Shown here piece by piece: positions 28,422-49,395 of a stretch of 64,000 nucleotides of DNA; within the stretch, counting starts at the first letter, position 1; each line of letters begins with the position of its first letter. The DNA is from Opitutia bacterium (GTDB lineage Bacteria; Verrucomicrobiota; Verrucomicrobiia; Opitutales; T3Sed10-336): positions 1 through 64,000 of the forward strand of contig JBJHCF010000002.1 of assembly GCA_050506795.1 (NCBI GenBank). The letters are read 5' to 3'. The position numbers and the translations under genes are program-made. The notes under the pieces are model-generated. The model saw only the letters and a program-made list of their open reading frames with translations, was not told where the DNA came from and searched no databases.

Positions 28422-28504
28422 GCCCGGATGGCGGAATGGTAGACGCTGCGGACTTAAAATCCGTTCCTTGCAAAAGGGTGAGGGTTCGAGTCCCTCTCCG
28501 GGCA
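28422..28504 (+). tRNA. tRNA-Leu (anticodon TAA)
   Basis: Acceptor stem GCCCGGA/TCCGGGC, D-arm GGCGGAATGGTAGACGC, anticodon arm GCGGA-CTTAAAA-TCCGT, long variable arm, T-loop GGTTCGAGTCC. Followed by CCG, so CCA is not encoded. Confidence 0.96.
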
Positions 28505-28612
28505 CCGCCTCTGTTTATGCGGCATGTAGGCTAACTCCAGTGACTTACACGCAACGGTAGTCCGCAGGAGTTAGCTCTTGCCTTGCTCGGAAAAGTCGGC
28601 ATATAAGGCATA

Positions 28613-29902
28613 ATGCGACAATCGACCGGCACCAAAACCGGCACCAAAAAAGGTAGCAAACCCGAGCTCGGCCAAAAGGATCAGATCGTTGGAAAGAACG
28701 TCCTTCGGCGAGCCGCTTCGCCATATCTGTACTGCCTGGCCTACGTCAACGGACGGCGGATTCGTGAATCTCTAAAGATCGAGGCCGAGCCCCTGACCCA
28801 GGAAAAGCTACGGATGGCCGAAAAGAAAGCCCGGTTGAAGCTGGAGGCCCTCCGGAACGACGACGTCGCCATGTACGAAGCCGGGCGCGTGACGAAGTCA
28901 TGGCCAACGGTCGGCCAGCTCCTCGAAAGCTTTGAGGAGTACGCGAAGATTCGGAATCTATCCCATCGCACCCGCTTGACCTACCGGAGCGCCCTAAAAA
29001 ACACCATTCTAGCCGTTCACGGCCGTACCAATGGATGGAAAAACCGCAGCGTTTCGGACATCAATCCCAGCCTGGCGACCAAGTACGTGCAAGCTGTCAT
29101 CAAAGACAGGCCGGGCGCCCAGGACGACCGCACCGAACGCCAGAGCGCCGTCAACATGGCGCAAAGCCGTCTCAGGGATGCCGCCGCCATATTCTCCAGA
29201 ACCGCGCTTCGCTACTATGCCGAAACCGGTTTGCGCCTCCCGGAAATCAATTTCGGCCCGTCCCCTTATTTCGCCGCGACCCGCAAGGACTACACTCTCC
29301 CGCCTGCACCGCTCCTCAAGAAAACGATCGAAGCCTGCGAGAAGGCCAAGGATGAAGAACAGGACCACTATATTTGCTTTCTCCTCACCTTCGGACTGGC
29401 CTGCCGTGGATCCGAAGCCATCGCCGCCGAACACACCTGGATCGAGGAGACCCACGAGGGCGGCAAAGTCAAACACTGGCTGGCCATACGCGAGCGGCCG
29501 ACCTGGAAGCAAAAGCGCCGCGCCCACCGCAAGCCGATGTCCGATTACGTTTTCGCCGAGCTTCAGGATGTCGCCTCGGACCGGCTGCCTCTGCTTTCCG
29601 GAGAGACCCCGCACCTTCGCCGCGTGATCCTACAGCGGAATTTCGCGACCTTCCTGCGTGGCCTCGGGTGGGACTCCAACACCTATCCCTGCCCGGTACA
29701 CGAGCTCCGAAAAGCCATGGGCAACCATGTTTACCACTTTCGGAGCCCGGTAGCCGCCAAGCGCCTCCTGGGCCACTCCACCATCCTCACCACGGAACAG
29801 AGCTACTCGGAGAACACCGAAACGCCGCCGGAACTGGTACCTCTTTTCGAGCGGTACCTGGTTCAGGAGCCGAAAGCAAAGGATGCCCAGACCGCAAAAT
29901 AG
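28613..29902 (+). CDS. Tyrosine recombinase/integrase 1
   Basis: LACRGSEA (R), HELRK (HxxR), LLGHS and EQSY (Tyr nucleophile); tRNA-adjacent. Confidence 0.9.
   Translation: MRQSTGTKTGTKKGSKPELGQKDQIVGKNVLRRAASPYLYCLAYVNGRRIRESLKIEAEPLTQEKLRMAEKKARLKLEALRNDDVAMYEAGRVTKSWPTVGQLLESFEEYAKIRNLSHRTRLTYRSALKNTILAVHGRTNGWKNRSVSDINPSLATKYVQAVIKDRPGAQDDRTERQSAVNMAQSRLRDAAAIFSRTALRYYAETGLRLPEINFGPSPYFAATRKDYTLPPAPLLKKTIEACEKAKDEEQDHYICFLLTFGLACRGSEAIAAEHTWIEETHEGGKVKHWLAIRERPTWKQKRRAHRKPMSDYVFAELQDVASDRLPLLSGETPHLRRVILQRNFATFLRGLGWDSNTYPCPVHELRKAMGNHVYHFRSPVAAKRLLGHSTILTTEQSYSENTETPPELVPLFERYLVQEPKAKDAQTAK
28625..28648 (+). repeat. Tandem 12-bp direct repeat ACCGGCACCAAA x2, putative arm-type integrase site
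   Basis: Exact duplication at 28625-28636 and 28637-28648, about 120 bp from the tRNA 3' end. Confidence 0.6.
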
Positions 29903-29965
29903 CGCCGCCGGGGCTCACAATTCCCTCCCCTCCTCCACCGCCCATCAACCCGGCAACCTGCTCAG

Positions 29966-31123
29966 ATGAAACCCAAGAACCTCATCAAACGCGGAGACAC
30001 CTACCACTTCCGCGCGACCATCGACGGCAAACAAATCTGGCAGACCCTGGACACCTCCGACCGCCAACTGGCCGCCGCCCGTGCCCGCAAGCTCAAGGAA
30101 GAGCTCAAAGGTCGCCGCTGGGACGTCCTCATGGACGTCCGCCGCCGTAATTCCTGGTCCACTCTTGGCGAAGTATTCGATGCCTACCGCAGACGCGCGG
30201 AGACCGAGGACATCAACGCCCGGACCGTCAAAGAGAACATTTCGTGCCTCAGTCGAATCGTTCGGGCCGTTCACGGCAAGCACTGCGATCCGGAGGCCGA
30301 GAAGACCTCGATCCTCACCGCCGAGCTCGTCCGCGAGTACCAGGCCCGGAAACTGGAATCCGCCAAACCGGCCGGACCGCTCGCCCTCGACAAGGCAAAA
30401 TCCACCTCCTTCTCGACCGTCCGGCAGGCCCGTTCCCTCTTTTCGCGTGAGTGCCTCCAGTCCAGCGCCTACCGCGACCTTTCGCTCCCCGACTTGGCGG
30501 GATTCCTGGAAACCCGGCTGAAAAACAAAGAACGCCAACTCCGCCGGCCGCCGGACCCGAAACTGATCGCCGCAACCGCCGAGGCCGCCACCGAACTCAA
30601 GAAAACACATCCCGCCCGCTGGCTCGCGTTCATCCTCTGTTCGAACCTCGGCCTCCGCCGCTCCGAAGCCATCGCCGCCCGGTGGGATTGGATCGACGAA
30701 GTCACCGTCCACGGCGAGCAGAGCCAACCCGACGGCACCACAAAGACCGTGGAGACCACCTGCTACGTGATGAGCGTGATCAAACGCGACGACTTCGACC
30801 CGAAAGGCTCGCCGCGCCTGATCTCGATCCACCCGGAAGTCTGGCAGGACATGAAGCAAGCCCAGCTCTCCCTCGACACCATCATCCCCGGAACCCAGCC
30901 CGAACGACTCCAAGCCTGCAAAGAGAACGTCACCTGGCTCCGCGCCCTCGGCTGGAACGCCCGCCTCCCCAACCACGCCCTCCGGGGCCTCTTCGCCAGC
31001 ACCATCGCCAGCCAACACGGCCTCTTCGCCGCCCAAAGCGCCCTCGGCCACGCCGACCCCCGCACCACCACCGACAGCTACGCCGCCTGGCTCGGCTTGG
31101 ATAAGGTGGTGAAGGTCTTTTGA
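29966..31123 (+). CDS. Tyrosine recombinase/integrase 2, paralogous to integrase 1
   Basis: LGLRRSEA, NHALR, ALGHAD, TTDSY; N-terminal arm-binding-like YHFRATIDGKQIWQTLDT. Confidence 0.92.
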   Translation: MKPKNLIKRGDTYHFRATIDGKQIWQTLDTSDRQLAAARARKLKEELKGRRWDVLMDVRRRNSWSTLGEVFDAYRRRAETEDINARTVKENISCLSRIVRAVHGKHCDPEAEKTSILTAELVREYQARKLESAKPAGPLALDKAKSTSFSTVRQARSLFSRECLQSSAYRDLSLPDLAGFLETRLKNKERQLRRPPDPKLIAATAEAATELKKTHPARWLAFILCSNLGLRRSEAIAARWDWIDEVTVHGEQSQPDGTTKTVETTCYVMSVIKRDDFDPKGSPRLISIHPEVWQDMKQAQLSLDTIIPGTQPERLQACKENVTWLRALGWNARLPNHALRGLFASTIASQHGLFAAQSALGHADPRTTTDSYAAWLGLDKVVKVF

Positions 31124-31599: not shown

Positions 31600-32320
31600 T
31601 TACAGGCCACGGGAACCGGAGGATTTCGCCGATTTCCTGGACCTTCCGGAACCCCCGTTGCTTGTCGGCGGACAAGCAGTAAACCTCTGGGCTCTTCACT
31701 ACGGCGAGGAAACCGAGGGCCTCGCCCCATTTGTCTCAAGAGATGTGGACCTCCTTGGAAAACGCCAAACACTCTCGGACCTTGCGGCCCGGACCGGAAC
31801 GCGGCCCCAATTCTTTCCCCTTAAGCCACCCAGCAACTCCTGGGGTGTCGTTATCGCCGAAGACGCCCGGGGAGATCCTCTGCTCATCGAAGTCCTCCGG
31901 TATGCCAACGGCGTCAGCAACGAAGATCTGGAAAAACCCGCTTATACCTTCGTTATCGGAACAGGAGTACACGTCCGGGTCCCTGGCCCCATCGCCCTGC
32001 TCAAGGCAAAGATCGCGAATGCCTCGGACCTTCCCCAGGCGGATCGCCAGGACGAGCAGCACGTCGTCATCCTTTGCCGCCTGATGCCCGCCTACCTCTC
32101 CGACCTCGAACACGCGGCCGCCCATGGCAAAACCACAGAACGAGCCGTCCTCACGCTGCTGGAATACCTCTTGCAAGTCATCACGGCCGAAAAGGCAAAA
32201 ACCGTCCTCCACCGCCACGGAATCAACCGTGAATCACTCTTCTCGCCCCTCTCGAATTCCGTACTCCCAAAGATCCAAGCTTTCTACAAGCAACGCCTCC
32301 CGCGAGCTCTGGGAAGGTGA
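31586..32320 (+). CDS. Pol-beta-superfamily nucleotidyltransferase (AbiEii/MenT-like), candidate toxin
   Basis: LLVGGQAVNLW ... SRDVDLLG (GG plus DxD), then PIALLKAK and RQD. Start placed at ATG 31586. Confidence 0.72.
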   Translation: MPPSDYRPREPEDFADFLDLPEPPLLVGGQAVNLWALHYGEETEGLAPFVSRDVDLLGKRQTLSDLAARTGTRPQFFPLKPPSNSWGVVIAEDARGDPLLIEVLRYANGVSNEDLEKPAYTFVIGTGVHVRVPGPIALLKAKIANASDLPQADRQDEQHVVILCRLMPAYLSDLEHAAAHGKTTERAVLTLLEYLLQVITAEKAKTVLHRHGINRESLFSPLSNSVLPKIQAFYKQRLPRALGR

Positions 32321-32325
32321 CACGA

Positions 32326-32425
32326 CGAACGCCTTTTCGCCTACAAAGAGATCGTCACCCTGGCTCCGAGTCCTCGGCTGGGACGCCCGCCTCCCCAATC
32401 ACGCCCTCCAAGGTCTCTTCGCCAG
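32326..32425 (+). pseudogene. Degenerate ~100-bp copy of the integrase 2 catalytic region (30901-30999)
   Basis: Manual alignment gives about 85% identity with one 1-nt insertion. It translates to WLRVLGWDARLPNHALQGLFA versus WLRALGWNARLPNHALRGLFA. Confidence 0.9.
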
Positions 32426-32798: not shown

Positions 32799-35150
32799 AT
32801 GACGAAACAGGAAAAACAGCAACTCAGCGAAATCGACATCTGCGATCTGTTTATCACGCCCGCGATCAAAAACGCGGGTTGGGACCAGCCCACCCAGATC
32901 CGCCGCGAGGTTACCCTTGCTCCTGGCCCAGTCGTCGTTCGGGGAAACATGTCCTCGCGAAACACGAAGAAGAAAAAGTTCGCTGACTACGTTTTGCTTC
33001 GGGAGGCAGGGGTTCCCATCGCGATCGTCGAGGCCAAGGACAACAACCACACCGTCAGCCACGGCATGCAACAAGCCCTGGGCTACGCAGGCATTCTCGA
33101 CGTCCCCAGTGCCTTCAGTTCCAACGGCGACGCCTTCGCCTCCCACAATAAAGTCCCGGCACCTGGCGAAGAAATCGAGTGCGAATTGCCCCTCGATTCC
33201 TTCCCAACGCCCGCCGAACTTTGGAAGCGCTACAAGAAGCACCGGAACATTCGGGACAACGAAGAGGAACTGGTCCTCGAGCCCTACCATCTTGACGCCT
33301 ACGGCAAGGAGCCACGTTACTATCAGGCTGAGGCGATCAACCGCACTCTCGAAGCCATCGCAAAAGGCCGGAATCGTCTCCTTTTGGTCATGGCCACAGG
33401 CACCGGCAAGACCTACACGGTCTTCCAAATCATCTGGCGCCTTTGGAAAGCCAAAAAAGCCAAGCGCACCCTCTTCCTCGTCGACCGGAATGTTCTCGCC
33501 GACCAGACGCTCGTAAATGATTTCAAGCCGTTCGGCTCGGTCATGACCAAGATCAAGAACCGCAAGATCGATTCTTCCTACGAAATCTATCTCGGCCTCT
33601 ACCAGGCCCTCACCGGCCCCGACGAAGAAGACAAGATCTTCAAAAACGTCTCTCGCGACTTCTTCGACCTCATCATTATCGACGAGTGCCACCGCGGCAG
33701 CGCCGCGGATGACTCCGCTTGGCGCGAAATCCTCGAATACTTCTCCAACGCCACCCAGATCGGCCTGACCGCAACCCCCAAGGAAACCAAATACGCCTCC
33801 AACATCGCTTACTTTGGTGAACCCGTTTACACCTACAAGTTGAAGCAGGGCATCGAAGACGGTTTCCTCGCGCCCTACAAGGTCGTCCGCTACCACCTCG
33901 ACAAAGACCTCATCGGGTGGACACCCCCGCCGGGCATGACCGACGACCTCGGCAAGGACATCGAGCAACGCACCTACAACATGGCCGACATGGACCGCAT
34001 CCTGATTCTCAATCAGCGCACCAAGCTCGTCGCCAAGTGCGTCATGAAGCTTCTCAACGCCACCGACCCTTTTTCCAAAACGATCATCTTTTGCGAGGAC
34101 ATTGACCACGCCGAGCGCATGCGCGTGGCGATCACCAATGCGGCCGGTCAACTCGCCCTCGACAATCCCAAATACGTCATGCGCATCACCGGCGACAGCG
34201 TCGAGGGCAAGGCCGAGTTGGACAACTTCATCGACCCCGAGTCCAAGTTCCCCGTCATCGCCACCACTTCCGAGCTTCTCACCACCGGCGTCGATGCCAG
34301 GACCTGCAAACTCATCGTCCTGGACAAGACCATTAACTCCATGACCACCTTCAAGCAGATCGTTGGGCGCGGCACCCGCATCGAGGAAGAATTCGGAAAA
34401 TATTTCTTCACCGTCATGGACTTCAAGAACGCGACCGAACTCTTCAAGGATCCCGAGTTCGACGGCGATCCCGTCGTCATCTACGAGCCCGACCCCGACG
34501 ACGACCCAGTGCCTCCAGACCCCGACCCAGGTCCCGGTGATGGCGGTATCGAAGAAGACCCGGTTCCGTACAATTCGAAAAAAATCCGTGTGAGCGGAGT
34601 CGACGTCGTCATTCTCGCCAAAACCGTCGAATACCGCGACGACGATGGCCAGATGGTCACTGAGTCCTACTGCGACTACAGCCGAAAAAACATCCGCACC
34701 GAATACGCTTCGCTCGATGACTTCATCAACAAGTGGAACTCCACCAGGAAGAAGGAAGCCATCGTCAAGGAGCTGGAAGAATACGGCATCGAGCTTTCCA
34801 AACTCGCCGAGGAGGTCGGCAAAGACTACGGCGACTTCGACCTCATCTGCCACATCGCCTATGACCAGCCGCCCCTCACGCGAAAAGAGCGGGCCGACAA
34901 TGTCAGAAAGCGGGACTACTTCACCAAATACGGAGACAAGGCCCGCGCCGTCCTTGAAGCCCTCCTGGACAAATACGCCGACGAAGGCATTCTCACCATC
35001 GAGAGCCCCAGGGTTCTCAAACTCACTCCCTTCGACCAGATGGGCACGCCCGTCGAGATCATCAACGACGTCTTTGGCGGCAAGGCAAAATACGAATCCG
35101 CCCTCCAGGAACTCGAGCGCGCACTCTTTGATCAAAAACACTCAGCATGA
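32799..35150 (+). CDS. hsdR: Type I restriction enzyme R subunit (EcoAI-like)
   Basis: ADYVL...IVEAK nuclease, MATGTGKT, DECHRG, GLTATP, QIVGRGTR. Confidence 0.96.
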   Translation: MTKQEKQQLSEIDICDLFITPAIKNAGWDQPTQIRREVTLAPGPVVVRGNMSSRNTKKKKFADYVLLREAGVPIAIVEAKDNNHTVSHGMQQALGYAGILDVPSAFSSNGDAFASHNKVPAPGEEIECELPLDSFPTPAELWKRYKKHRNIRDNEEELVLEPYHLDAYGKEPRYYQAEAINRTLEAIAKGRNRLLLVMATGTGKTYTVFQIIWRLWKAKKAKRTLFLVDRNVLADQTLVNDFKPFGSVMTKIKNRKIDSSYEIYLGLYQALTGPDEEDKIFKNVSRDFFDLIIIDECHRGSAADDSAWREILEYFSNATQIGLTATPKETKYASNIAYFGEPVYTYKLKQGIEDGFLAPYKVVRYHLDKDLIGWTPPPGMTDDLGKDIEQRTYNMADMDRILILNQRTKLVAKCVMKLLNATDPFSKTIIFCEDIDHAERMRVAITNAAGQLALDNPKYVMRITGDSVEGKAELDNFIDPESKFPVIATTSELLTTGVDARTCKLIVLDKTINSMTTFKQIVGRGTRIEEEFGKYFFTVMDFKNATELFKDPEFDGDPVVIYEPDPDDDPVPPDPDPGPGDGGIEEDPVPYNSKKIRVSGVDVVILAKTVEYRDDDGQMVTESYCDYSRKNIRTEYASLDDFINKWNSTRKKEAIVKELEEYGIELSKLAEEVGKDYGDFDLICHIAYDQPPLTRKERADNVRKRDYFTKYGDKARAVLEALLDKYADEGILTIESPRVLKLTPFDQMGTPVEIINDVFGGKAKYESALQELERALFDQKHSA

Positions 35151-36631
35151 GCAACGTTAGCGGAATTATTAAGTCCATTCAGGACATCATGCGGAAGGAT
35201 GTCGGCGTTGACGGCGACGCCCAGCGCATCAGCCAACTGGTATGGATGTTCTTTCTCAAAATCTACGATGATCGCGAAGCGGAGATCGAACTTCTCGAAG
35301 ACGATTACAAGTCGCCCCTTCCCGAGAAGCTTCGCTGGCGCAACTGGGCCGCCGACCCCGAGGGCATGACGGGCAATGACCTCAGCGAGTTCGTCAATAA
35401 CGAGCTTTTCCCCACGCTCAAAGAAAAGCTGGTCCTCGAAGGTCCGAACGGCAAACGCGCCCAGGTCGTCCGCAATGTCTTCGAGGATGCTTACAACTAC
35501 ATGAAGTCGGGCACGTTGATACGCCAGGTCATCAACAAGATCAGCGAGATCAACTTCAACAACACCGAAGACCGCCACACCTTCGGCAGCATCTACGAGC
35601 AGATTCTCAAAGACCTGCAAAGCGCCGGCAACGCGGGCGAATTCTACACCCCCCGCGCTGTCACCCAGTTCATCGTCAACCGCGTCGATCCGAAGCTCGA
35701 CGAAATCGTCCTCGACCCCGCCTGCGGCACCGGCGGCTTCCTCGCCTGCACCATCGACCACAAGCGCAAGCATTACGTTAAATCCGCCAAGGACGAGGAG
35801 ACCCTCATCGCCAGCATCCACGGCGTCGAAAAGAAGGCCCTGCCGCACATGCTCTGCACGACGAACATGATCCTGCACGGCATCGACACCCCCACCAGTA
35901 TCCGCCACGACAACACCCTCAGCCGCCCCTACAAGGACTACGGCGAAAAGGACCGGGTCCATGTCATCGTCACCAACCCGCCTTTCGGCGGCACCGAGGA
36001 GGATGGCATCGAGAACAACTTCCCCGCCAACCTCCGCACCCGCGAGACCGCCGACCTTTTCATGGCGCTCATCGTCAAGCTGCTGAAAAACCAGGGCCGC
36101 GCCGCCGTCGTCCTTCCCGATGGTTTCCTCTTCGGCGAGGGCATGAAAACCCGCCTCAAGCAGGACCTGCTGGCGAAGTGCCACCTCCACACCCTCGTCC
36201 GCCTGCCCAACGGCGTTTTCGCTCCCTACACCGGAATCAAGACCAACATCCTCTTCTTCACCAAAAAACCCGAGAGCGAACAACCCGCCACCCGGGAAGT
36301 CTGGTTCTACGAGCACCCTTACCCGGAAGGGGTCACCAGCTACAACAAAACGAAGCCGATGCGCTTTGAGGAGTTCCAGACCGAGATCGACTGGTGGGGC
36401 TCCGAGGACGATGGCTTTGCCGGCCGCGTCCAAACCGAGCAAGCCTGGAAGGTCAGCATCGAAGACATCGCCGCGCGAAACTACAACCTCGACATCAGCA
36501 ACCCCCACGTCGGCGAAGCGGTCAACCACGACCCCGAGGAACTACTGGCTGAATACAACAAACAACAAGGGGAGATCCAAAGCCTGCGCGACCAGTTGAA
36601 ATCTATTTTGGGTGAGGCGCTCGGCCGATGA
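35147..36631 (+). CDS. hsdM: Type I R-M N6-adenine methyltransferase
   Basis: GEFYTPR, LDPACGTGGFL, TNPPFGG; ATGA overlap with hsdR. Confidence 0.97.
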   Translation: MSNVSGIIKSIQDIMRKDVGVDGDAQRISQLVWMFFLKIYDDREAEIELLEDDYKSPLPEKLRWRNWAADPEGMTGNDLSEFVNNELFPTLKEKLVLEGPNGKRAQVVRNVFEDAYNYMKSGTLIRQVINKISEINFNNTEDRHTFGSIYEQILKDLQSAGNAGEFYTPRAVTQFIVNRVDPKLDEIVLDPACGTGGFLACTIDHKRKHYVKSAKDEETLIASIHGVEKKALPHMLCTTNMILHGIDTPTSIRHDNTLSRPYKDYGEKDRVHVIVTNPPFGGTEEDGIENNFPANLRTRETADLFMALIVKLLKNQGRAAVVLPDGFLFGEGMKTRLKQDLLAKCHLHTLVRLPNGVFAPYTGIKTNILFFTKKPESEQPATREVWFYEHPYPEGVTSYNKTKPMRFEEFQTEIDWWGSEDDGFAGRVQTEQAWKVSIEDIAARNYNLDISNPHVGEAVNHDPEELLAEYNKQQGEIQSLRDQLKSILGEALGR

Positions 36632-37833
36632 AAAAGGATGAACTGGTCCTCTCCCGCGATCTCCTCAGCGAGATCAAGACCCGCGTCCGCGCGGGGCAGA
36701 ACCGCGCCGCCCTCTCGGCCAACGCCGAATTGATCGCCCTGTATTGGGACATCGGTCGCATGATCGCCACCCGACAAAAAGCCGAAGGCTGGGGCGCGGG
36801 CGTCATTCCCCGCTTAGCTGCGGATTTGAAAAACGAACTGCCGGAGGAGAAGGGGTTTTCGGAGCGAAATCTCAAGCGGATGGTTCGGTTCTTCCGCGAA
36901 TACTCCGATCTTGCCTCATTCATGCCGCAGGCTGCGGCACTATTATCCAAAGATGATCAAATTGAGGCGCAGGCAGCGCCACAGACCCATCCGCCCGCAA
37001 ATTTGCAGCAGCCCGCTGCAAAATTTGAAGAAACTGACGATAAGGAGTTTCCAAATGTGCCGCAGGCTGCGGCACATTTGCCCATTCCGCTCGATGTCTT
37101 ATTCGGACTTCCTTGGTTCCATCACGTCGTCCTTATTGAAAAACTGAAGGATTTACCGCTGAGATACTGGTATGCGCACCAAGCCCTCGAACAAGGCTGG
37201 TCCCGCGATACCTTAACCGAGCAGATCAAAAACCGCGCCCACGAGCGGCAAGGCGCCGCCGTGACCAACTTCGAGCGCACCCTTCCCGAGGCCCACGCGG
37301 CCATCGCCCAGAGCCTCCTCAAGGATCCGTATCTGTTCGATTTCCTCACCCTGGAAGGAACCTTCCACGAGCGCGAACTCGAGACCGGTCTGCTCGAGCA
37401 CATCCAGAAGTTCCTGCTCGAACTCGGGCGCGGCTTCGCCTTCGTCGGTCGTCAATACCGCCTGGAAATCAGCGAACGCGACTTCTACCTCGACCTCCTC
37501 TTCTACCACCTCCACCTCCGCTGTTTCGTCGTCGTGGACCTCAAGAAAGGCGAATTCAAACCCGAGTACGCGGGTAAAATGAATTTTTACTGCTCCGCCG
37601 TGGACGACCTCGTGCGCCACGAACAGGACGCCCCCACGATCGGCCTCATCCTCTGCCAGACCAAGGACCGCATCTTCGCCGAATACGCCCTGCGCGACAT
37701 CCACAAGCCCATTGGCCTCGCCGACTACGAACTCACCCGCTCCCTCCCCACCGAACTCGCCTCCAGCCTCCCCAGCATCGAAGCCATCGAAAACGAACTC
37801 GCCGATGATCTCGGAAAGGAGAAAAACGAATGA
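36628..37833 (+). CDS. YhcG/DUF1016-family PD-(D/E)XK nuclease
   Basis: LYWDIG, GFSERNL, KDPYLFDFL, ELGRGFAFVGRQ, DLLFYH...VDLK, GKMNFY. Confidence 0.93.
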   Translation: MKKDELVLSRDLLSEIKTRVRAGQNRAALSANAELIALYWDIGRMIATRQKAEGWGAGVIPRLAADLKNELPEEKGFSERNLKRMVRFFREYSDLASFMPQAAALLSKDDQIEAQAAPQTHPPANLQQPAAKFEETDDKEFPNVPQAAAHLPIPLDVLFGLPWFHHVVLIEKLKDLPLRYWYAHQALEQGWSRDTLTEQIKNRAHERQGAAVTNFERTLPEAHAAIAQSLLKDPYLFDFLTLEGTFHERELETGLLEHIQKFLLELGRGFAFVGRQYRLEISERDFYLDLLFYHLHLRCFVVVDLKKGEFKPEYAGKMNFYCSAVDDLVRHEQDAPTIGLILCQTKDRIFAEYALRDIHKPIGLADYELTRSLPTELASSLPSIEAIENELADDLGKEKNE

Positions 37834-39611
37834 ATCCCCACAACCCTCAACTTTCCTCCCTCATCACTCAGCACCTCGACACCTGGACTTCGGCGATCAA
37901 GGCGAAGGCATCTGCCGGACGGGGAGGCGGCAAGAAACAGGAGTTCTACGGCATCAAAAAACTGCGGGAGCTGATCCTGGAGTTGGCGGTGCGGGGATTG
38001 TTGGTGCCGCAGGATCCGAAGGATGAACCGGCAGTAGAATTATTGAGGAAAATTTCAGTGGAGCGCTCCAGTCTTATCCAAGCAGGTAAGCTTAAGAAGC
38101 AGCAGCCTTCTTCGTCGATCAAAGACGAAAACTCGCAATATCCTATCCCGAAGGGATGGGTTTGGACGCGAATTGGGACTATCGGAAATGTTTTCAATGG
38201 GAATAGCATCAGCTCTCGAGTGAAGGAAGAAAAGTATACTGGCATTGAAGGTTACCCATTCATTGCAACAAAAGATGTTGGATACGGCTTCGAAGGCCTC
38301 GATTATGAAAATGGAGTCGCAATTCCCGTAGATGAGGACAAATTCCAAGTTGCACGAAAAGGTTCGGTGCTAATCTGCGCTGAAGGCGGGAGTGCTGGTA
38401 AAAAGTGCGGCATCACAGACAGGGACATTTGTTTCGGAAACAAGCTCTTTGCCAATGAACTGATCGGAGGAATCTCTTCCAAATATATTCTTTCGGTTTA
38501 CTTATCCCCAACGTTCTTCTCAGCCTTTTCAGAGTCAATGACAGGAATCATTGGCGGGATTTCAAAATCGAAATTCGAAACACTGCTTTGCCCACTCCCG
38601 CCTCTCGCCGAACAACACCGGATCGTCGCAAAAGTCGATGAACTGATGGCGCTTTGCGATCAGCTCGAACAGCAGCAAGAGGACAGCGTGCGCACGCACG
38701 GCACCCTGGTGCAAACGCTCCTCGGCACCTTAACGGCCGCCAGCGAACCCGGTCAGCTCGCCCAAGCCTGGCAGCGCATCGCCGCCCACTTCGACCCCCT
38801 CTTCACCACCGAAAGCAGCATCGACCAACTCAAACAAACCATCCTCCAACTTGCCGTCATGGGCAAACTCGTCGAGCAAGATCCGGAAGATGAAAAGGCC
38901 TCTGAACTCCTCAAAAAAATCGCCACCGAAAAAGCCAAACTCATCAAAACCGGAAAAATCAAAAAGCAGAAAACACCGCCACCGGTATCAGATGATGAGA
39001 TGCCCTTCGAAAAGCCATATGGCTGGGAGTTTTGCCGACTTAAAGAATGTGCTTATGTTTTCTCAGGCAATGCTTTCAAAAGCGAAGATTTCAACAACAC
39101 TAATGGCATCAGGGTGATAAAGATCACTAATGCGGGCGTAGGAGAACTAATTGAAACTGAGGAGTTCCTACCTCCGTCTTTCGGAGCCGGATACGAAAAC
39201 TTTCAGGTCATTAAGGGCGACATGATTTTGGCCTTAACAAGGCCTTATATATCTACTGGTCTAAAAGTTAGCATATGCTCTGCAAAATACGACAATGCAC
39301 TATTGAATCAGCGTGTTGCCGCCATTCGTTGTTTTATCGATACGTCGTTCATGTATCAGTATATGCAAAGCACCTACGTTCTTGGCCTTTATCAAAAGAG
39401 ATTCAGCGGCTCAGGTCTCCAGCCCAATTTGAAGATGGCAGATGTAACTGAATTAATCACTCCTGTCCCACCCCTCGCCGAACAACGCCGCATCGTCGCC
39501 AGAGTCAGCGAGCTGATGACCTTGTGCGACCACCTAAAAGCAAATCTTCAGGCAGCGCAAACAACTCAACTCCAGCTCGCCGACAATGTCGTCGAAGCCG
39601 CGATCCGATAG
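37830..39611 (+). CDS. hsdS: Type I R-M specificity subunit
   Basis: Two TRDs flanked by IPKGWVW/KPYGWEF and PPLAEQ(H/R)RIVA; IL(E/Q)LAV(R/M)G repeats. Confidence 0.96.
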   Translation: MNPHNPQLSSLITQHLDTWTSAIKAKASAGRGGGKKQEFYGIKKLRELILELAVRGLLVPQDPKDEPAVELLRKISVERSSLIQAGKLKKQQPSSSIKDENSQYPIPKGWVWTRIGTIGNVFNGNSISSRVKEEKYTGIEGYPFIATKDVGYGFEGLDYENGVAIPVDEDKFQVARKGSVLICAEGGSAGKKCGITDRDICFGNKLFANELIGGISSKYILSVYLSPTFFSAFSESMTGIIGGISKSKFETLLCPLPPLAEQHRIVAKVDELMALCDQLEQQQEDSVRTHGTLVQTLLGTLTAASEPGQLAQAWQRIAAHFDPLFTTESSIDQLKQTILQLAVMGKLVEQDPEDEKASELLKKIATEKAKLIKTGKIKKQKTPPPVSDDEMPFEKPYGWEFCRLKECAYVFSGNAFKSEDFNNTNGIRVIKITNAGVGELIETEEFLPPSFGAGYENFQVIKGDMILALTRPYISTGLKVSICSAKYDNALLNQRVAAIRCFIDTSFMYQYMQSTYVLGLYQKRFSGSGLQPNLKMADVTELITPVPPLAEQRRIVARVSELMTLCDHLKANLQAAQTTQLQLADNVVEAAIR

Positions 39612-39645: not shown

Positions 39646-41529
39646 ATGCGCCTCAAGCACATCCACATAAGCGATTACAAGAACCTGAAGAACTTTGACC
39701 TCCATTTCGAGAGCGATAGTTACCTGGATGTATTCGTGGGAAAGAACGGCACCGGAAAATCGAACCTATTCGAGGCTCTTATCGAGATCTTTCACCATCT
39801 CAATGAGTTTAAGTCAAGCGGTTCCAGTATCGACTTCGACTACCGCATCACCTATGAAATCGAGGACAGAAGCACGTCCATCGAGTGGGCCGACAGCCAG
39901 CTCAAGATCAACGGGCGCAATCGCAAGAGTCTCGGCAAGACCCCTATCCCCGACAATATACTGGTCTATTACTCAGGACACAACGATACGGTTTCAACGC
40001 TGATCGGGAACTATCAAGCGGCGTTTCAAAGCAGGATCAAGAGCGCCAATTTCTCCGACTCACGCTATTTTCTTGGCATAGACTCTGCCTACAAACAGAT
40101 CCTCCTCGCAGCCAGTCTCCTCAGACCAAGCGACAGCCCCTGCCGCCGCTTCATTTGCCAGAAGCTCGGCATCGCGGAAACCGGAACCGAACTCCGAGTT
40201 ACACTCAAGCGGCCCTATTACGCGGCTTCTTCCGAATACGACGTCCAAAACAACGACGATGTCGACAAATTCTGGAAACCCCAAGGCATCACGAAAACTT
40301 TTTTGAACCAGCTCACAGCGTGCGCCGCTCCAGCCCCAAGGGGTGGCCGAGTCAGAACTGAAGGCTACCTTTCAGGCGAGGACAGATACATCCTCTACGT
40401 GGACACCGCTAAACTGGTAGAAGAATTCAAAGACGAAGCGTCGCACGAACTGTTCAACCGGTTCGACAATCTGAAGGTCCTCGAGATGCTCGAAGACATT
40501 TCGATCCCCCTCAAGCTCACCAACGGAGAACAAGCCAACACCTCCTTCTTCAGTGATGGCCAGTTCCAATCCGTTTACATTTTCGCGATCACCGAGATCT
40601 TCAAACAGCGCCATTGCCTGACGCTGCTTGACGAGCCCGACTGCTTCCTCCACCCCGAGTGGCAATACGAATTCCTCAGCCAAATATTCGAGATCTCAGA
40701 CGTCGCCACTCAAACCAACCACACCCTCCTCAGTAGCCACAGTGCGTCAACAATCTCATCGAGCAACGACAGCCTCATCAGCCTATTCGAAATAGACGGT
40801 AATACTGTCAAGGTCTCCCGTGTTCCCAAGGGCGAAGTCATCACCTCTCTCTCAGCGGGACTGATTACCTTCTCCGAGTCCGAAGCACGCCTAAATATCC
40901 AGCACGTCCTGAGCAACACGACAGGGCCGGTTCTCTTCACGGAGGGCATCACCGACGAGATCATCTTGGAAATCGCCTGGTCGAAACTGTATCCCGGCGT
41001 AGATCGGCCGTTCGAGATCCAGAATGCGTTTGATTGTGCTTTTTTGGGCAATCTCTTGCTGCGGGACGAACTTTACCAGAATCATTCGAAAAGGGTGTTC
41101 TTCGGTTTATTCGACTTTGATGAGGCATACCAGATGTGGAATCGCCTTAGCGGACCTGATGAAGAAATGGACCCCTGTAAATGCCTTACGAAGAAGCATG
41201 CTAAACATGAGGGTTATGGACTACTTCTTCCGGTTCCAACTGCCTCCTCGGTCAGAAATCAAGTATTAAACCCTACTACTGGTCGTACGTTTAAACATAA
41301 GTCACTGCTAACAACTGAACTGCTTTTTCACGACGTTCCCGGCTTGGAATCACATTTCGCGGTCGACACCGAACGGACGGACAGCTTCAAGAAATTCGTT
41401 GGGAATAAAGTCAATTTCGCAAAACAGATTGTCCCGACCCTTGATCCCGTTCACTTCAAGGTTTTCGAGCCCATCTTCGATTTCATAAAATCCAAAGGCA
41501 ACACACCCGCCACTCGCACATCAACATAA
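39646..41529 (+). CDS. ABC-type ATPase fused to a C-terminal TOPRIM-like domain (OLD/PARIS-like architecture)
   Basis: GKNGTGKS, FSDGQ, LLDEPD...HPEWQ, SSHS; then VLFTEGITD and FDFDE (TOPRIM Glu plus DxD). Confidence 0.8.
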   Translation: MRLKHIHISDYKNLKNFDLHFESDSYLDVFVGKNGTGKSNLFEALIEIFHHLNEFKSSGSSIDFDYRITYEIEDRSTSIEWADSQLKINGRNRKSLGKTPIPDNILVYYSGHNDTVSTLIGNYQAAFQSRIKSANFSDSRYFLGIDSAYKQILLAASLLRPSDSPCRRFICQKLGIAETGTELRVTLKRPYYAASSEYDVQNNDDVDKFWKPQGITKTFLNQLTACAAPAPRGGRVRTEGYLSGEDRYILYVDTAKLVEEFKDEASHELFNRFDNLKVLEMLEDISIPLKLTNGEQANTSFFSDGQFQSVYIFAITEIFKQRHCLTLLDEPDCFLHPEWQYEFLSQIFEISDVATQTNHTLLSSHSASTISSSNDSLISLFEIDGNTVKVSRVPKGEVITSLSAGLITFSESEARLNIQHVLSNTTGPVLFTEGITDEIILEIAWSKLYPGVDRPFEIQNAFDCAFLGNLLLRDELYQNHSKRVFFGLFDFDEAYQMWNRLSGPDEEMDPCKCLTKKHAKHEGYGLLLPVPTASSVRNQVLNPTTGRTFKHKSLLTTELLFHDVPGLESHFAVDTERTDSFKKFVGNKVNFAKQIVPTLDPVHFKVFEPIFDFIKSKGNTPATRTST

Positions 41530-41542: not shown

Positions 41543-43663
41543 ATGAATTTTGAACAGCCCAAGCCAGACTCCAAAAAGTATTCAGATCTCATTTCGAACA
41601 TCGAAAAAGGGATTATCAAGATCCCGAAATTCCAGCGCGAGTTCGTCTGGGGCATCGATAAGACAGCCAAGCTCCTGGACAGCATCTTGAAAGGCTATCC
41701 CATAGGCACTTTCATACTTTGGAAGACGGACGAGCGGATCAATGACATCAAGAATGTCGGCAATCTGGACATCCCCCCGACCCCGGACGGGACGAAGGTA
41801 GAATATGTCCTCGACGGCCAGCAGCGGATCACCTCCTTGTTCGCCGCCTATCGCGGGGCAAAGATCCAAAAGGTTGGCGAGAAGAAGGTGACGGACTACG
41901 GCGATATCGTAGTGAACATCGACGTCGAAATCAGCGATAGCGACGGCCAGGTGATTTCCGCAGAGCCAAATGGCCAGAAATCGGTCTCGTTGAATACAGT
42001 CCTGAACTTCAGCTTCGCCAAGGCCAAGGAGCTGGAATCGCAGTTTAGTGGCGACGAACTTCAGCTTATCGATTCCTATGCGACCGCGTTCCGCACGTAT
42101 GAATTCTCAACGGTCGTCCTGAGAAAAGAAGACATCGATTCTGCGATCGAAGTCTTCACCCGGATCAATACCGGAGGGCAGACCTTGACGCTGTTCGAAA
42201 TCATGTCTGCGAAAACCTACGATGAAGAGCAGAATTTCGACATGACAGTAAAGTGGGCTGACTTCATCAAAGACTTGAAGGACATCAAATACGAAGGGGT
42301 ATCCAGTTCAGTTGTACTGAGCCTTTTGTCCCTAGTCCTCAGCCGCACAAAGGAATGCAAACGCAAGACGATCCTGGCCCTGGAAAAACAAAACATCATC
42401 GATACATGGAGCGATGCCATCTCGGCGCTGAAGGACAGTATCGACTACTTTCGGACAACCTACCGGATTCCAGTCTCGCAGATTCTGCCATACGACGCAC
42501 TCCTGATCCCGTTCGCCTATTTTTTCTACTACAGGAAGGACAAGCCGAGCGGGGTGCAAAAGAAACTTCTTGAGGAGTTCTTTTGGCGGATGTCCCTCTC
42601 CTTCAGATATTCCAGCTCCACGGAATCCAAGCTGGCGCAGGACATCAAACGAATCGAAACGATCCTGGAGGAAAATCGTCCCGACTACTCTGACATCAAG
42701 GTCTATTTGGAATCGCCGCGAGCACTTGTGGAGACGAGCTTCAGCGCCGGGAACAGCTACTGCAAGGCCATCCTGTGCCTGTTGGCTTACCAGGAGCCCA
42801 AGGATTTCAGAGACAACGGTAAGGTGATTCTGGACAATTCCTGGCTCAAGATCGCAAACAGTAAGAACTACCATCACTTTTTTCCCAGAGCCTATCTCAA
42901 GGGGAAGGAGATTCCGAATGGAAACAGCTTGGTGAATATCACGTTTGTCAGTGACCATCTCAACAAACGCAAGATCGGCGCGAAAGCTCCCTCAGTCTAC
43001 ATCGGCGACTTCCACGACGACAACAGCGAAATCAACGTCGCACTAAGGTCTCATTTCATCGACCTCAATGGATTTGGAATCGAGAGTAATGACTACGCCA
43101 CATTTTTGGAGAAGAGATCCCGGCTGATCTATGACGCGCTGAAATCGCGGATCGAGCTGACCCATCAGGAATCCGTAAACGAGGAGTTGGAGCAGCTCAT
43201 AGTCGCGGGAGAAAGTGATCGGGTAGAATTCAAGTCGACTCTCCGCTACGATCTAAGAACCAAGGAAGTGAACAAGAAGCTGGAGTTCGTGATCGCAAAG
43301 ACTATCGCCGCTTTTCTGAATTCCGAAGGGGGAGACCTCCTGATCGGAATCGACGATGATTCAAATGCACTGGGTCTGGAGGACGACTTGAAAACGCTTG
43401 AGAAGCAGAATATCGACGGCTTCGAATTGCATCTGATCGGGATCATCAGGAAATATGTCGGCACCCAATATGGAGGCCACATCAAAATCTTATTCCCGCT
43501 CTACGACAGCCAGCAAATCTGTCGCATTCAGGTATCCCGAAGCGGCACTCCGGTTTTCACGTCATATGAAGGAAAGGACGAATTCTTCGTTCGCACTGGC
43601 TGCTCCTCCCAGCCCCTTAGCCGCGGGGAGCAAAGTATCTACGAGAAGGAACATTGGTCATAG
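41543..43663 (+). CDS. GmrSD-like protein (DUF262 plus HNH) with a C-terminal AlbA_2/Schlafen domain
   Basis: IPKFQREFVW, LDGQQRITSL, FTRINTGG; YHHFFP...NSLVNITFV...N; GESDRVEFKST...IAAFLNSEGGDLLIGIDD. Confidence 0.85.
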   Translation: MNFEQPKPDSKKYSDLISNIEKGIIKIPKFQREFVWGIDKTAKLLDSILKGYPIGTFILWKTDERINDIKNVGNLDIPPTPDGTKVEYVLDGQQRITSLFAAYRGAKIQKVGEKKVTDYGDIVVNIDVEISDSDGQVISAEPNGQKSVSLNTVLNFSFAKAKELESQFSGDELQLIDSYATAFRTYEFSTVVLRKEDIDSAIEVFTRINTGGQTLTLFEIMSAKTYDEEQNFDMTVKWADFIKDLKDIKYEGVSSSVVLSLLSLVLSRTKECKRKTILALEKQNIIDTWSDAISALKDSIDYFRTTYRIPVSQILPYDALLIPFAYFFYYRKDKPSGVQKKLLEEFFWRMSLSFRYSSSTESKLAQDIKRIETILEENRPDYSDIKVYLESPRALVETSFSAGNSYCKAILCLLAYQEPKDFRDNGKVILDNSWLKIANSKNYHHFFPRAYLKGKEIPNGNSLVNITFVSDHLNKRKIGAKAPSVYIGDFHDDNSEINVALRSHFIDLNGFGIESNDYATFLEKRSRLIYDALKSRIELTHQESVNEELEQLIVAGESDRVEFKSTLRYDLRTKEVNKKLEFVIAKTIAAFLNSEGGDLLIGIDDDSNALGLEDDLKTLEKQNIDGFELHLIGIIRKYVGTQYGGHIKILFPLYDSQQICRIQVSRSGTPVFTSYEGKDEFFVRTGCSSQPLSRGEQSIYEKEHWS

Positions 43664-45241: not shown

Positions 45242-45985
45242 TTACGAACTGGGATCAAACCAAATCGGGTCGGGCGTTAGAGTTGAATCGTTGATTGGGC
45301 AGTCAATCCCCGAATTGTCGACTAGCGAGGTCACACGGGATTTCAGGTCGGAGGCAGCACCTGGGTTCAACCTGATTTCGTCGATCAGGGGCAAACCCTC
45401 GAACCCAGCTCTTTTAAAGGTCGGCCAGTGATCTGGTGGTGCCTCACCTAGTTGCGCAAAGTCATCGCGAATCATAAGATCCACATCCTCGTGAATCATC
45501 CGCAACTCCGCCTCAGATGCGAATTCGGGTCTCTTACGTATTGGTAACTGCCAATGTCCACCGGGCGGAACAGGGTTAGGCCACGGATCGTATATTACTT
45601 CTGCGACGTAGGAGTTCGGGAAAAAGTCGGCGATCGTAGACAGCTTCCCGACCGTCGACCGGATCACCACACCCTCACGGATCACCACACCCTCAGTGAC
45701 TCCACCATAGCTCGGCCACATCAAGGAATCTTCCTGCGGAAAAACATGCCAGCATGAAGCGAAGGCAATATGACGCCAGGCCCAAGCATGTCGTTGGCTA
45801 GCAACTTCAGAGACGGTCGGAACCGATCCAGAAGCGGGAATGTAACCCTCATATTTGTCTGCGAACTGATCTAGCCGCGACAAGTGCAGTTCTTTAGTGG
45901 TGATGAGATCGCTCAAGCGTTTAAACGACATGTAACGCCACACCACCAAATCAGAATCGGGTTCGGGAATCGATTGATGCCTCAT
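45242..45985 (-). CDS. DUF2971-like protein
   Basis: VWRYMS...F-x-D-x-x-EG...ASCWH...SLMWPSYG...GVVIRS...KRPEFASEAELR. Contains an 18-bp tandem duplication (EGVVIR x2). Confidence 0.65.
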   Translation of the reverse strand: MRHQSIPEPDSDLVVWRYMSFKRLSDLITTKELHLSRLDQFADKYEGYIPASGSVPTVSEVASQRHAWAWRHIAFASCWHVFPQEDSLMWPSYGGVTEGVVIREGVVIRSTVGKLSTIADFFPNSYVAEVIYDPWPNPVPPGGHWQLPIRKRPEFASEAELRMIHEDVDLMIRDDFAQLGEAPPDHWPTFKRAGFEGLPLIDEIRLNPGAASDLKSRVTSLVDNSGIDCPINDSTLTPDPIWFDPSS

Positions 45986-46726: not shown

Positions 46727-46927
46727 ATGGCCAACGAAAACGACCACATAGTTATTCCGGAAACCGTCCAGCAGGTTTTGAAGACGTTTCTCGGGGCTAT
46801 ACGAGACGAGCCGGATATCCCGGAAGATGGGATAGCCCGATTGGAAACCCTCCTGCTCAAGGGCGAAACCCCAAAGCCTGAAGACATCAAAACGGCCCTG
46901 TTCGAGCCCTCAGAGGGGGAGACATGA
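46727..46927 (+). CDS. Small acidic hypothetical protein coupled to the SMC-like gene
   Basis: 66-aa helical ORF with an ATGA overlap onto the downstream gene. Confidence 0.7.
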   Translation: MANENDHIVIPETVQQVLKTFLGAIRDEPDIPEDGIARLETLLLKGETPKPEDIKTALFEPSEGET

Positions 46928-49395
46928 TTCGAGTCCAGACGCTCCAAATTCAGAATTTTCGCGGGGTGCGCGACCTGACCCTCAACCTCGATGGAAGAAA
47001 TTTTGGGATTTGCGGTCCCAACGGCACCGGCAAGAGCGGTGTTGTCGATGCAATCGAATTCTGTTTGACTGGCGATGTAACGCGTTTGTCAGGCCAAGGC
47101 ACTGCGGAGCTTTGTGTAAAGAACCATGCGCCCCACGTCGACCAGCGCACCCATCCTGGAAAGGCAAATGTCACCATCACCGGCGATATTCCTTCTCTCG
47201 GCAAAGTCGTAACTATTCACCGCTCGGTGAAGAATCCGAAGAAGGTGGAGATCAAACCGGCCGACCCGGCCATAAAGGCCGTTGTCACCCAACTGAAAGC
47301 CCATCCCGAATTCGCGCTCTCCCGCCGGGAGATCGTGAAATACATCATCACCCCGCCAGGTCAGCGCTCGATCGATGTCCAGACGCTATTGCGGCTGGAC
47401 CATATCGAGCGCCTGCGCAAGTCGTTCACAACCTTCAACAACAAACGCAAGGGCGAGGCGGATGAAGCGAAACGCAGTCGCATCAAAGCCGAGACGGACC
47501 TGAAAACCGCCCTGAAACTTGACAAGCTGGACTGCGGGTGTGTCCTCGAAAAGGTCAACGAGAAGCGGAAGATTCTCAGCCTGCCGGAACTGACCGAGCT
47601 GACCAAAAACACCTCCTTAAAGGCCGGCGTCGCTGTGCCTCAGGAAACGAACAAGAAACCGCCCCTTCGCAAGGCTGTCGCGCAGGCCGATCTCAATGCC
47701 CTTCAGACCGCGCTACAAGGCGGCGAACCGACCACGCTCGCTGACAGCCGTCAGGCGACCAAGGACGCTCTCGAAAAACTCCGGGACGATGATGAAGCCC
47801 TGACACTCGCTCGACGTCACGGCTTCATCAAGACCGGTCTTGATCTGATCACCGAAGACGCCTGCCCGCTATGCGATACACCGTGGAAGGCGGACAATCT
47901 ACGCGAGTACCTGCGCCAGAAAATTCTCAGCGCCGAAGAAACCGAAAAGCTTCTCGACACTCTTCGGACCGATATTAACGCCATTTTGGAAACCCTTGCC
48001 GAACGCATCCAGGCCGTTGCGCGCGTCATCCAGTACAGCAAGAGCCTGGAACCACCTGTGCCGAAAACCGAGACGGAAACCTACCTCAAAGAGTTGCAGG
48101 ACGCGGAAACCGCGCTCAAGGAATTTCTTGAAAATCACAGCCGGATTGCCCCCGCAATCACGGCTGTAACCAACTCGTGGTGGTCGCCGGCAGTGCCGCA
48201 GCGTGCACGGATCGATGAATGCCAGGCAGCGGTAAACGCCTTACCCGATACCTCGGCCGCCGACGAGGCGCACGACATACTCAGTGTCGCGCAGGACCGC
48301 TATGAGCGGCTGTTGGAGGCTACGCAGGCGGCAAGAAAGGGCGAGGAGCAGAGCGCTATCGCGCAAAAGGTGCTGGACCACTACAACACAAGCGCCACCG
48401 GAGTCTTGGAAGCGATTTACGACCAAGTCGCCACGGAATTTTCGACCTTCTACCGTGCCATCAATCGCGAGGACGAGGAAAAGTTTGTCGGCAAGTTGAC
48501 GTCCGAGCCGTCCAAGCTGTGCTTTGACGTAGATTTTTACGGCCGCGGCCTTTTTCCACCGGGTGCCTATCACAGCGAAGGTCATCAGGACGCCATGGGG
48601 CTGTGCCTTTACCTGGCTCTGATGAAACACACTCTCGGAGACAAGTTCACTTTTACAGTTCTCGACGATGTACTCATGTCGGTCGATACAGGCCACCGGC
48701 GGGAGGTTTGCCGACTTCTAAAGAAGGAATTTCCCAGCACCCAGTTTGTCCTTACCACCCATGATCGCGTTTGGCTCCGATACATGAAGACCGAAAACCT
48801 AATTTCTCGGAGCCAATCTTCCGGCGGGTGGACGGTCGATTCCGGTCCGCGCGTGTGGGATGACCACGACGTTTGGACAGAAATTCAAGGGGAACTGGTT
48901 AAGGAGAATGTCGCGCAAGCCGCCTGGCTCTTGCGCCGCTATCTCGAATATACAGCCTTCATCCTCGCCGATAACCTCCGTACCCGCATAGAGTTCCGGG
49001 GCGACGGCGTCTATGATCTGTCAGACCTTATGCCTCACGTTTTTAAGAGTTGGCGCAAATGGCTTGAAGACGGTGAGAAATCGGCGATAACGTGGAAACT
49101 CAATGAACAAAAAACCGCTCTTTCCGCAATGCGGGCCAAGGCTAAAGAGCTGGTTGCCAAAACGAATACGGAGCAGTGGGCCATCAACCCGTCCGTTCAT
49201 TTCAACGAATGGACCAATCTGCAGGCCCCTGAATTTCAGGAAGTGGTCGATGCCTTCAAAGCTCTTCTGGAATACCTCCGTTGCGAGAATCCGGCGTGTA
49301 ACTCATACCTCTATATCTCGCCGCGCAAGGGTCAACCTGAGGAACTGCGCTGCAATTGTGGAAAGATCTCAATTAACCTTAAACGTGCGCCCTAG
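46924..49395 (+). CDS. Rad50/SMC-like ABC ATPase with zinc hook and C-terminal extension (RloC-like layout)
   Basis: IQNFRG, GPNGTGKS, coiled coil with central CPLC, HSEGH, VLDD..SVD, TTHD; tail LRRYLE...NPSVH...CENPAC...CNC. Confidence 0.82.
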   Translation: MIRVQTLQIQNFRGVRDLTLNLDGRNFGICGPNGTGKSGVVDAIEFCLTGDVTRLSGQGTAELCVKNHAPHVDQRTHPGKANVTITGDIPSLGKVVTIHRSVKNPKKVEIKPADPAIKAVVTQLKAHPEFALSRREIVKYIITPPGQRSIDVQTLLRLDHIERLRKSFTTFNNKRKGEADEAKRSRIKAETDLKTALKLDKLDCGCVLEKVNEKRKILSLPELTELTKNTSLKAGVAVPQETNKKPPLRKAVAQADLNALQTALQGGEPTTLADSRQATKDALEKLRDDDEALTLARRHGFIKTGLDLITEDACPLCDTPWKADNLREYLRQKILSAEETEKLLDTLRTDINAILETLAERIQAVARVIQYSKSLEPPVPKTETETYLKELQDAETALKEFLENHSRIAPAITAVTNSWWSPAVPQRARIDECQAAVNALPDTSAADEAHDILSVAQDRYERLLEATQAARKGEEQSAIAQKVLDHYNTSATGVLEAIYDQVATEFSTFYRAINREDEEKFVGKLTSEPSKLCFDVDFYGRGLFPPGAYHSEGHQDAMGLCLYLALMKHTLGDKFTFTVLDDVLMSVDTGHRREVCRLLKKEFPSTQFVLTTHDRVWLRYMKTENLISRSQSSGGWTVDSGPRVWDDHDVWTEIQGELVKENVAQAAWLLRRYLEYTAFILADNLRTRIEFRGDGVYDLSDLMPHVFKSWRKWLEDGEKSAITWKLNEQKTALSAMRAKAKELVAKTNTEQWAINPSVHFNEWTNLQAPEFQEVVDAFKALLEYLRCENPACNSYLYISPRKGQPEELRCNCGKISINLKRAP

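Follow-up and report, generated by a model that had tools for sequence, protein, structure and literature searches.

BrxU is the described enzyme that the protein presented here most resembles. It is reported to cut DNA carrying 5mC, 5hmC or glc-5hmC, and to require its DGQQR and DHIYP motifs, including D474 of the latter, its HNH motif (PMC8565348). In the absence of nucleotide it forms a dimer, which gives way to a monomer once ATP is present, and DNA does not stimulate its NTPase (PMC8565348). The consensus HNH motif of GmrSD is (D/E)HxxP (PMC4619093). HEC-06 requires E471 of its HNH motif, and GmrSD-like genes are known to be embedded in BREX and type I loci (10.1101/2024.01.29.577857). 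According to a review of what DUF262 proteins do, SspE senses phosphorothioate marks and nicks DNA (PMC10952713).

In prokaryotes, Schlafens mostly serve as effectors with a sensor fused to them, and those with an Ex4(E/D)xK motif are tRNases that cut tRNA when the fused sensor is triggered (PMC13056530). In RzAgo, single Schlafen lobes pair through an ATP-driven oligomer, as seen in one structure (10.64898/2026.05.29.728809).

DUF262 and Schlafen also occur together. A survey in Nat Microbiol 2026 (PMC13056530) has 109 such proteins among 5,930, labelled pSlfn7, with a defence score of 0.76. One of these, EcoSlfn7, lowered the plating of T2, T3, T4, T5, T6 and T7 (−log10 EOP of 1.0, 0.52, 1.16, 1.25, 0.41 and 2.75) and gave no protection against lambda, P1, T1, M13, MS2 or Qbeta. 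The other tested member, EluSlfn7 (591 aa), was nearly inactive (PMC13056530).

The original prediction for the gene described here was a GmrSD-like nuclease fused to a Schlafen/AlbA_2 domain, with no known characterised example of this architecture. For the DUF262-Schlafen pair that last statement was too broad, given the pSlfn7 catalogue and the tested EcoSlfn7. For the three-domain form it stands: no study of a DUF262-HNH-Schlafen protein was found in the literature searched, a body that most subscription papers fall outside of, and the accessible parts of PMC12839542 and of the preprint version of PMC13056530 hold nothing further on it.

The gene and its domains

The window, which is the whole stretch of 64,000 nucleotides analysed here, comes from an Opitutia bacterium. 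At 41543..43663 a single intact open reading frame encodes a protein of 706 aa, in which a DUF262 domain, a helical linker, an HNH domain and a Schlafen domain follow each other. This gene is on the plus strand, as are all features below unless a minus sign is given. An AlphaFold2 model of the protein, built from 118 sequences, has a pLDDT of 89.9.

The DUF262 (GmrS) domain is at 41582..42214 (aa 14-224; Pfam PF03235), where GmrSD_N matches with E 5.7e-33, above its curated cut-off. It has a ParB/Srx fold: the N-terminus of the model matches ParB/Noc/sulfiredoxin folds with Z 5.3-7.3. Its motifs are FQR (30-32), KLLDS, DGQQR (91-95) and FTRIN, and these include the QR, DGQQR and FxxxN of GmrSD and BrxU, as given in PMC4619093. 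FQR and DGQQR are also where they had been predicted. S47 of KLLDS takes the place of S42 in the RLFDS of BrxU. The domain is predicted to be a switch that binds and hydrolyses NTP. Behind it, as in BrxU, comes an all-helical linker domain at 42215..42742 (about aa 225-400, from the secondary structure of the model).

The DUF1524-like His-Me/HNH domain takes up 42743..43162 (about aa 401-540). Pfam has no match in the protein between GmrSD_N and SLFN_AlbA_2, the HNH region included, and no NCBIfam model scores above its cut-off anywhere in the protein. In relatives there are Pfam GmrSD_C matches below the cut-off, for example with E 2.8e-4 in P0124, which is 59% identical. In the model, approximately aa 403-517 match the HNH domains of Cas9 at Z 5.0-5.3, a middling score, and the structural alignment to BrxU runs through this part up to aa 538. 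With the conserved H445, N465 and N474, this points to a His-Me/HNH (DUF1524) fold with an H-N-N site.

The motif itself reads HHFFP, with H444-H445 at 42872-42877, followed by N465 and N474. Where an acidic residue (D/E) would precede the catalytic histidine there is H444, in 173 of 173 homologues. The predicted HNH-type region is thus borne out by the model, by the GmrSD_C matches of relatives and by its H-H-N-N residues, but its motif is not (D/E)HxxP. HH sites do occur in active HNH nucleases, such as the colicin DNases. By that analogy, HH instead of D/E-H would lower the case for membership of the GmrSD/BrxU group, and not the claim that the protein works like them. No tested HH-type member of the family was found in the literature covered.

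The C-terminus is a predicted single-lobe Schlafen/AlbA_2 RNase domain at 43178..43660 (aa 546-706; Pfam PF04326). SLFN_AlbA_2 matches aa 557-692 with E 1.2e-15, over 117 of 118 profile positions and above the curated cut-off. The Ex4ExK motif, formed by E557, E562 and K564 (43211-43234), lies within ESDRVEFK (557-564). In the model this part has the fold of a Schlafen C-lobe: it matches DIP2311 with Z 13.8, the tRNase domain of SAMD9 with Z 12.5-12.9 and SLFN11 with Z 9.5, at an rmsd of 3.1-3.6 across Schlafen-type matches. The complete AlbA_2-like domain with ESDRVEFK that had been predicted is confirmed by both searches. A complex prediction with two copies of the Schlafen domain scored 0.01, which speaks neither for nor against their pairing.

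BrxU (HEC-05; PDB 7P9K/7P9M) is the top Foldseek match of the model, with E 6.9e-14. Their structural alignment has Z 19.4 over aa 6-538 at 16-18% identity, and an rmsd of about 19 A that may be read as domain movement. The family profile finds BrxU with E 6.5e-36, scoring 111 bits over BrxU 7-362. The two proteins share the layout and fold of DUF262, helical part and HNH, the DGQQR motif, the LxDS serine, and their presence in BREX or type I loci. They differ in their HNH motif, DHIYP versus HHFFP, and in the C-terminal Schlafen domain that the window protein adds.

The best PADLOC profile is the candidate PDC-M55C (aa 5-533, E 6.8e-60), followed by HEC-05/BrxU. At 554 positions, the PDC-M55C profile does not reach the Schlafen domain. 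PDC-M55 partner genes are not among the matches listed for adjacent genes (the best 5-25 per neighbour), and the accessible main text of 10.1101/2024.01.29.577857 does not mention PDC-M55C.

SspE, DndI and HEC-06 also have DUF262-HNH domains, with fold matches of Z 8.4-9.7 for SspE and 8.7 for 9JFL. They are more distant than BrxU, and an RNase tail is not described in the accessible accounts of them. RzAgo (SLFN-pAgo) and RorSlfn5 share something else, a Schlafen tRNase of one lobe that a fused sensor controls; the oligomer that rebuilds the active shape in RzAgo is driven by an NTP-binding domain (10.64898/2026.05.29.728809). Their sensors, Argonaute-GHKL and Ig-like, are unrelated however, and they have no GmrSD-type HNH.

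The comparison with EcoSlfn7 takes more care. The window protein has GmrSD_N and SLFN_AlbA_2 in one chain, which is the Pfam rule for the pSlfn7 label. The EcoSlfn7 gene (E. coli UC4224) was located in NZ_CP104472.1, inside a P2-like prophage, and its 3' end agrees with the plasmid of PMC13056530. Like the gene in the window it is a single gene in a mobile defence slot, with GmrSD_N, then SLFN_AlbA_2, and an Ex4ExK motif. EcoSlfn7 however has 589 aa and DGLQR, versus 706 aa and DGQQR. BLASTP finds no full-length homology, only a 31-aa stretch of DUF262 with 42% identity. The EcoSlfn7 sequence has no [DEH]HxxP motif and scores less than 1 bit against the helical and HNH profiles of the long form. 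Against the Schlafen profile of the long-form family it scores 12 bits, versus 140-258 for long forms.

That the window protein is simply an EcoSlfn7 is ruled out by the 31-aa match, the absence of the HNH profile and the 12-bit Schlafen score. Going by sequence, the two are independent DUF262-Schlafen fusions. That EcoSlfn7 has no HNH is likewise a reading of its sequence, because the fold of a 73% relative, built from 6 sequences only, is too poor (pLDDT 49). The pSlfn7 Pfam sheet of PMC13056530 is without any HNH or DUF1524 label. Classed by domain spacing, and not by sequence, 35 of its 109 rows are long forms, in which at least about 330 aa separate the two domains, and 74 are short; both tested proteins, EcoSlfn7 and EluSlfn7, are in the short-spacing class.

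Homologues and what stands behind the core

All of the best 120 homologues listed are full length and have both Pfam domains, at 75-92% identity. Scanning species genomes led to 413 confirmed stretches and a returned set of 79 loci, in many bacterial phyla and some archaea. The closest homologues in these loci are from Verrucomicrobiota, at 91-92% identity.

No other close full-length copy turned up in 61 genomes related to that of the window, the best match being 28% identical over aa 7-490. A distant blastn search with the fusion gene found no match in 5,426 E. coli genomes. In viral contigs, the scanned strand of the best 79 loci of 295 matches has no Schlafen of the long-form type; a Schlafen of the EcoSlfn7 type is present in 16 loci.

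Conservation was assessed in 173 distinct homologues, made up of 121 proteins and 62 locus ORFs with duplicates removed. These are close relatives (at least 56% identity), and the HH motif was present in one of the six search patterns. FQR, DGQQR, FTRIN, H444, H445, N465, E557, E562 and K564 are invariant in all 173, and N474 is kept in 172. Q31, R32, S47, D91-R95, R207 and N209 are found in each of the 62 genome homologues, and all three site motifs in 61-62 of them. Per domain, 12-34% of columns are invariant in this set of 62. The catalytic-site residues stand out because this share is only 12% in the Schlafen domain and 26% in the HNH. The Schlafen domain is also the least conserved one, with a mean identity of 60% versus 69-71% in the others.

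A wider set of 151 representatives, mostly without Schlafen, was examined for the HH motif. It is present in 133 of the 136 that span the site, and these HH-type proteins are mostly cores of 520-560 aa without a tail. The HH site is therefore the family's own, and decay of the HNH after the fusion is ruled out. Because such tail-free cores keep HH, the HNH is the only visible effector of most relatives.

What stands behind the core varies. Pfam was run on 49 representatives, mostly the longer ones among 150. Schlafen is found in 7, and 9 have HEPN_Swt1 matches C-terminal to the core (E <0.01, mostly under the cut-off). In other scanned relatives the core is followed by DUF4357, DUF4268 or DUF5655, or preceded by Mrr_N or EVE. 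In a tree of 117 cores (FastTree only), the 17 Schlafen-bearing rows require 4 changes, of which at least 3 are forced by strong branches. On the BrxU-like core there have been at least three gains or losses of Schlafen. A single origin of the fusion on this core is rejected, with an AU p of 4.9e-21 (9 fused versus 19 unfused rows). Close cores without Schlafen are L077, P0126, P0129 and P0132, and in L077 (60% identical) the protein stops exactly where the core does. One sequence of 401 aa, P0142, joins DUF262 directly to the long-form Schlafen type, with no HNH; as a single sequence it is weak.

The set also contains some odd members. P0265, P0271 and P0269 are distant DUF262-HNH-Schlafen proteins with N-terminal extras. 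In P0265 these are EVE and Mrr_N domains, which suggests added readers of modified DNA. Broken or truncated copies, with frameshifts, stops or inserts, are present in 6 of the 79 loci (L025, L030, L051, L061, L071 and L074), in keeping with a gene that is costly and frequently lost. At L082:114-2291, in a record with the title 'uncultured Clostridia', the homologue contains 30 TGA codons in frame, 17 of them aligned to Gly. With TGA read as sense, that contig has 9 long frames versus 1; it probably uses code 25 (Gracilibacteria-like), the record being mislabelled or misbinned.

Neighbourhood in the window and in other genomes

The fusion gene has a GC content of 50.4%, whereas five of the window's housekeeping genes have 57-61%, and it is therefore mobile cargo. 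Its upstream neighbour at 39646..41529 ends 13 nt before it on the same strand. This gene encodes an ABC-type ATPase of 627 aa (AAA_15/AAA_21, and PtuA/AriAB/ATPase-Toprim profiles) with a TOPRIM-like C-terminus, where EGITD and DFD can be read. It is not among the recurring neighbour clusters of homologous loci, hence no fixed partner, and is probably a separate one-gene defence system. At L025, a split AAA gene with a PtuA match is in the equivalent place beside the homologue.

Further upstream is a type I restriction-modification operon, hsdR-hsdM-yhcG-hsdS (32799..39611; Pfam and PADLOC). Before that come a tRNA-Leu(UAA) and two tandem tyrosine-integrase genes (28422..31123; integrase matches below the Pfam cut-off), which are the probable left end of a defence island. 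None of the 20 repeat families shown supplies a right-hand attachment repeat. Positions 28422-32425 also hold genes of 159 and 283 aa without significant family matches, and 32359-32425 is a 67-nt, 90% copy of the 3' part of the second integrase.

Downstream of the fusion gene there are NERD, SMC-like and TIR genes. The island cargo includes a 247-aa gene with a PDC-S31 match (45242-45985, minus) and an 823-aa SMC/Rad50-like ATPase with a weak LmuB match (46924-49395). A 364-aa protein at 49739-50833 (minus, 44% GC) has an N-terminal TIR domain, with a PADLOC TIR-TM match of E 1.7e-63 over aa 5-165, and a C-terminal domain that no family was assigned to. A secreted-looking repeat protein of 3185 aa follows at 51917-61474 (minus), with a 266-nt internal repeat at 59588-60498. 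A promoter and terminator scan gave sites no more frequent than in shuffles.

In other genomes, the nearest ORF of at least 150 aa on each side was taken in 75 of the 79 loci, and the resulting 134 proteins were trimmed to 700 aa. In 19 of these 75 (a raw count, with no control set) the homologue has a restriction-modification or BREX gene next to it: 11 type I, 3 type IIG, 1 type III and 4 BrxL. There is some other PADLOC match in a neighbour in 16 further loci, a few probably spurious, and no PADLOC match in either neighbour in 40. In six loci the homologue has hsdR on one side and hsdM on the other, separated from it by 1-15 nt, and in four it comes after pglX-pglZ-brxL. Each of the two sets consists of kin, at 79-96% and 87-100% identity respectively.

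A long prokaryotic Argonaute gene lies downstream of the homologue in L015, L021 and L038, in the same cluster. No dedicated partner gene recurs in homologous loci beyond restriction-modification, BREX and Argonaute genes.

Mechanism and meaning

The fusion gene is real, conserved and very probably defensive. How it works is a more tentative matter. The favoured reading, held with something less than even confidence, is that of an NTP-switched, type IV-like DNase with a tRNase as backup, in a stand-alone accessory anti-phage protein. The DUF262 domain of the BrxU-like core (aa 1-540) would bind and hydrolyse NTP. The core would recognise invading DNA, which is most likely phage DNA with modified bases that the adjoining restriction-modification or BREX system fails to stop, and the HNH domain would cut it. 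A change of shape or oligomer, driven by NTP and DNA, would bring single Schlafen lobes together, and the joined lobes would cut tRNA, stopping translation as a backup.

Not all parts of this are equally firm. A defence function is highly likely, and both nucleases are probably active. Base-modified DNA as the trigger could go either way, and control of the Schlafen domain by the oligomer state is conjectured. The trigger is the weakest step; it draws on the likeness to BrxU (16-18% identity), on the neighbourhood and on the EVE domain of one relative. DUF262 proteins answer other cues too, given that SspE senses phosphorothioate and EcoSlfn7 works best against T7. T7 DNA is not known to have hypermodified bases. 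The protection by EcoSlfn7, larger for T7 than for T2, T4 or T6, does not follow base modification; EcoSlfn7 is of a different lineage, though. The original idea was that one polypeptide may couple sensing of modified phage DNA to both DNA cleavage and translation shut-off. Fold, invariant catalytic residues and neighbourhood support the dual DNase and RNase role in it; the sensing of modified DNA is supposed by likeness.

The non-canonical HH motif also allows for a core that binds phage DNA or another cue without cutting, so that the Schlafen tRNase would be the sole effector, by abortive infection. Prokaryotic Schlafens are mostly effectors on sensors (PMC13056530), EcoSlfn7 defends with DUF262 and Schlafen and no detectable HNH, and P0142 joins the two directly. 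This is nonetheless unlikely, with H444, H445, N465 and N474 conserved like the Schlafen triad, and with an HNH that is the only visible effector in the 520-560 aa, tail-free HH cores that most relatives are.

PrrC, which guards a type I enzyme, is the model for another reading. Here, a phage anti-restriction protein would set off the Schlafen domain by binding or blocking either the core or the adjoining type I or BREX complex. The position of homologues inside type I operons (6 loci) and after brxL (4 loci) agrees with this, phages are known to have inhibitors of type IV enzymes (PMC11322646), and embedded guards are discussed in 10.1101/2024.01.29.577857. There is however no fixed partner, a type I gene being adjacent in only 11 of 75 loci, and guarding is unlikely.

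The NTP switch could also be the sensor. DUF262 would then read NTP or dNTP, and pools drained by infection would leave a nucleotide-free dimer that pairs the Schlafen lobes, so that tRNA is cut regardless of DNA modification. The nucleotide-dependent dimer of BrxU and its NTPase, unstimulated by DNA (PMC8565348), would suit this, as would the pairing of single lobes in RzAgo (10.64898/2026.05.29.728809) and the broad phage range of EcoSlfn7. It leaves the conserved HNH unexplained, and is improbable.

A Schlafen domain that is a mere passenger, a non-catalytic module for nucleic-acid binding or oligomers on an ordinary type IV-like DNase, would match its low conservation and its absence from the four close cores, but it is very improbable in view of E557, E562 and K564, invariant in 173 of 173 while only 12% of Schlafen columns are, and of the HEPN RNase domains that fill the equivalent slot in other relatives.

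The favoured DNase with a tRNase backup can be taken one step further, with more doubt. The protein would be a restriction enzyme with a fail-safe in one chain, where the NTP-driven oligomer switch of an HH-type DNase also licenses the Schlafen tRNase. Translation would then stop upon either modified phage DNA or a phage inhibitor that jams the DNase. In the HH-type family, the C-terminus would act as a socket in which different RNase domains can be swapped. The name pSlfn7 would stand for two inventions that are unrelated and differ in mechanism.

The separate parts were known before, as was the concept of an RNase serving as backup. For GmrSD and BrxU enzymes, the link between the use of NTP, the recognition of DNA and its cleavage is a standing question (PMC8565348). 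Here the same switch would have tRNA cleavage as a further output that is simple to read, and this would let point mutants in the three sites separate these steps. The pSlfn7 label covers the window protein, but its tested member is a different invention, with no HNH seen in its sequence. The published pSlfn7 group would combine two fusions of independent origin, and phage tests have covered only the HNH-less one. The other would be a restriction enzyme of a type IV-like kind that carries its own abortive backup.
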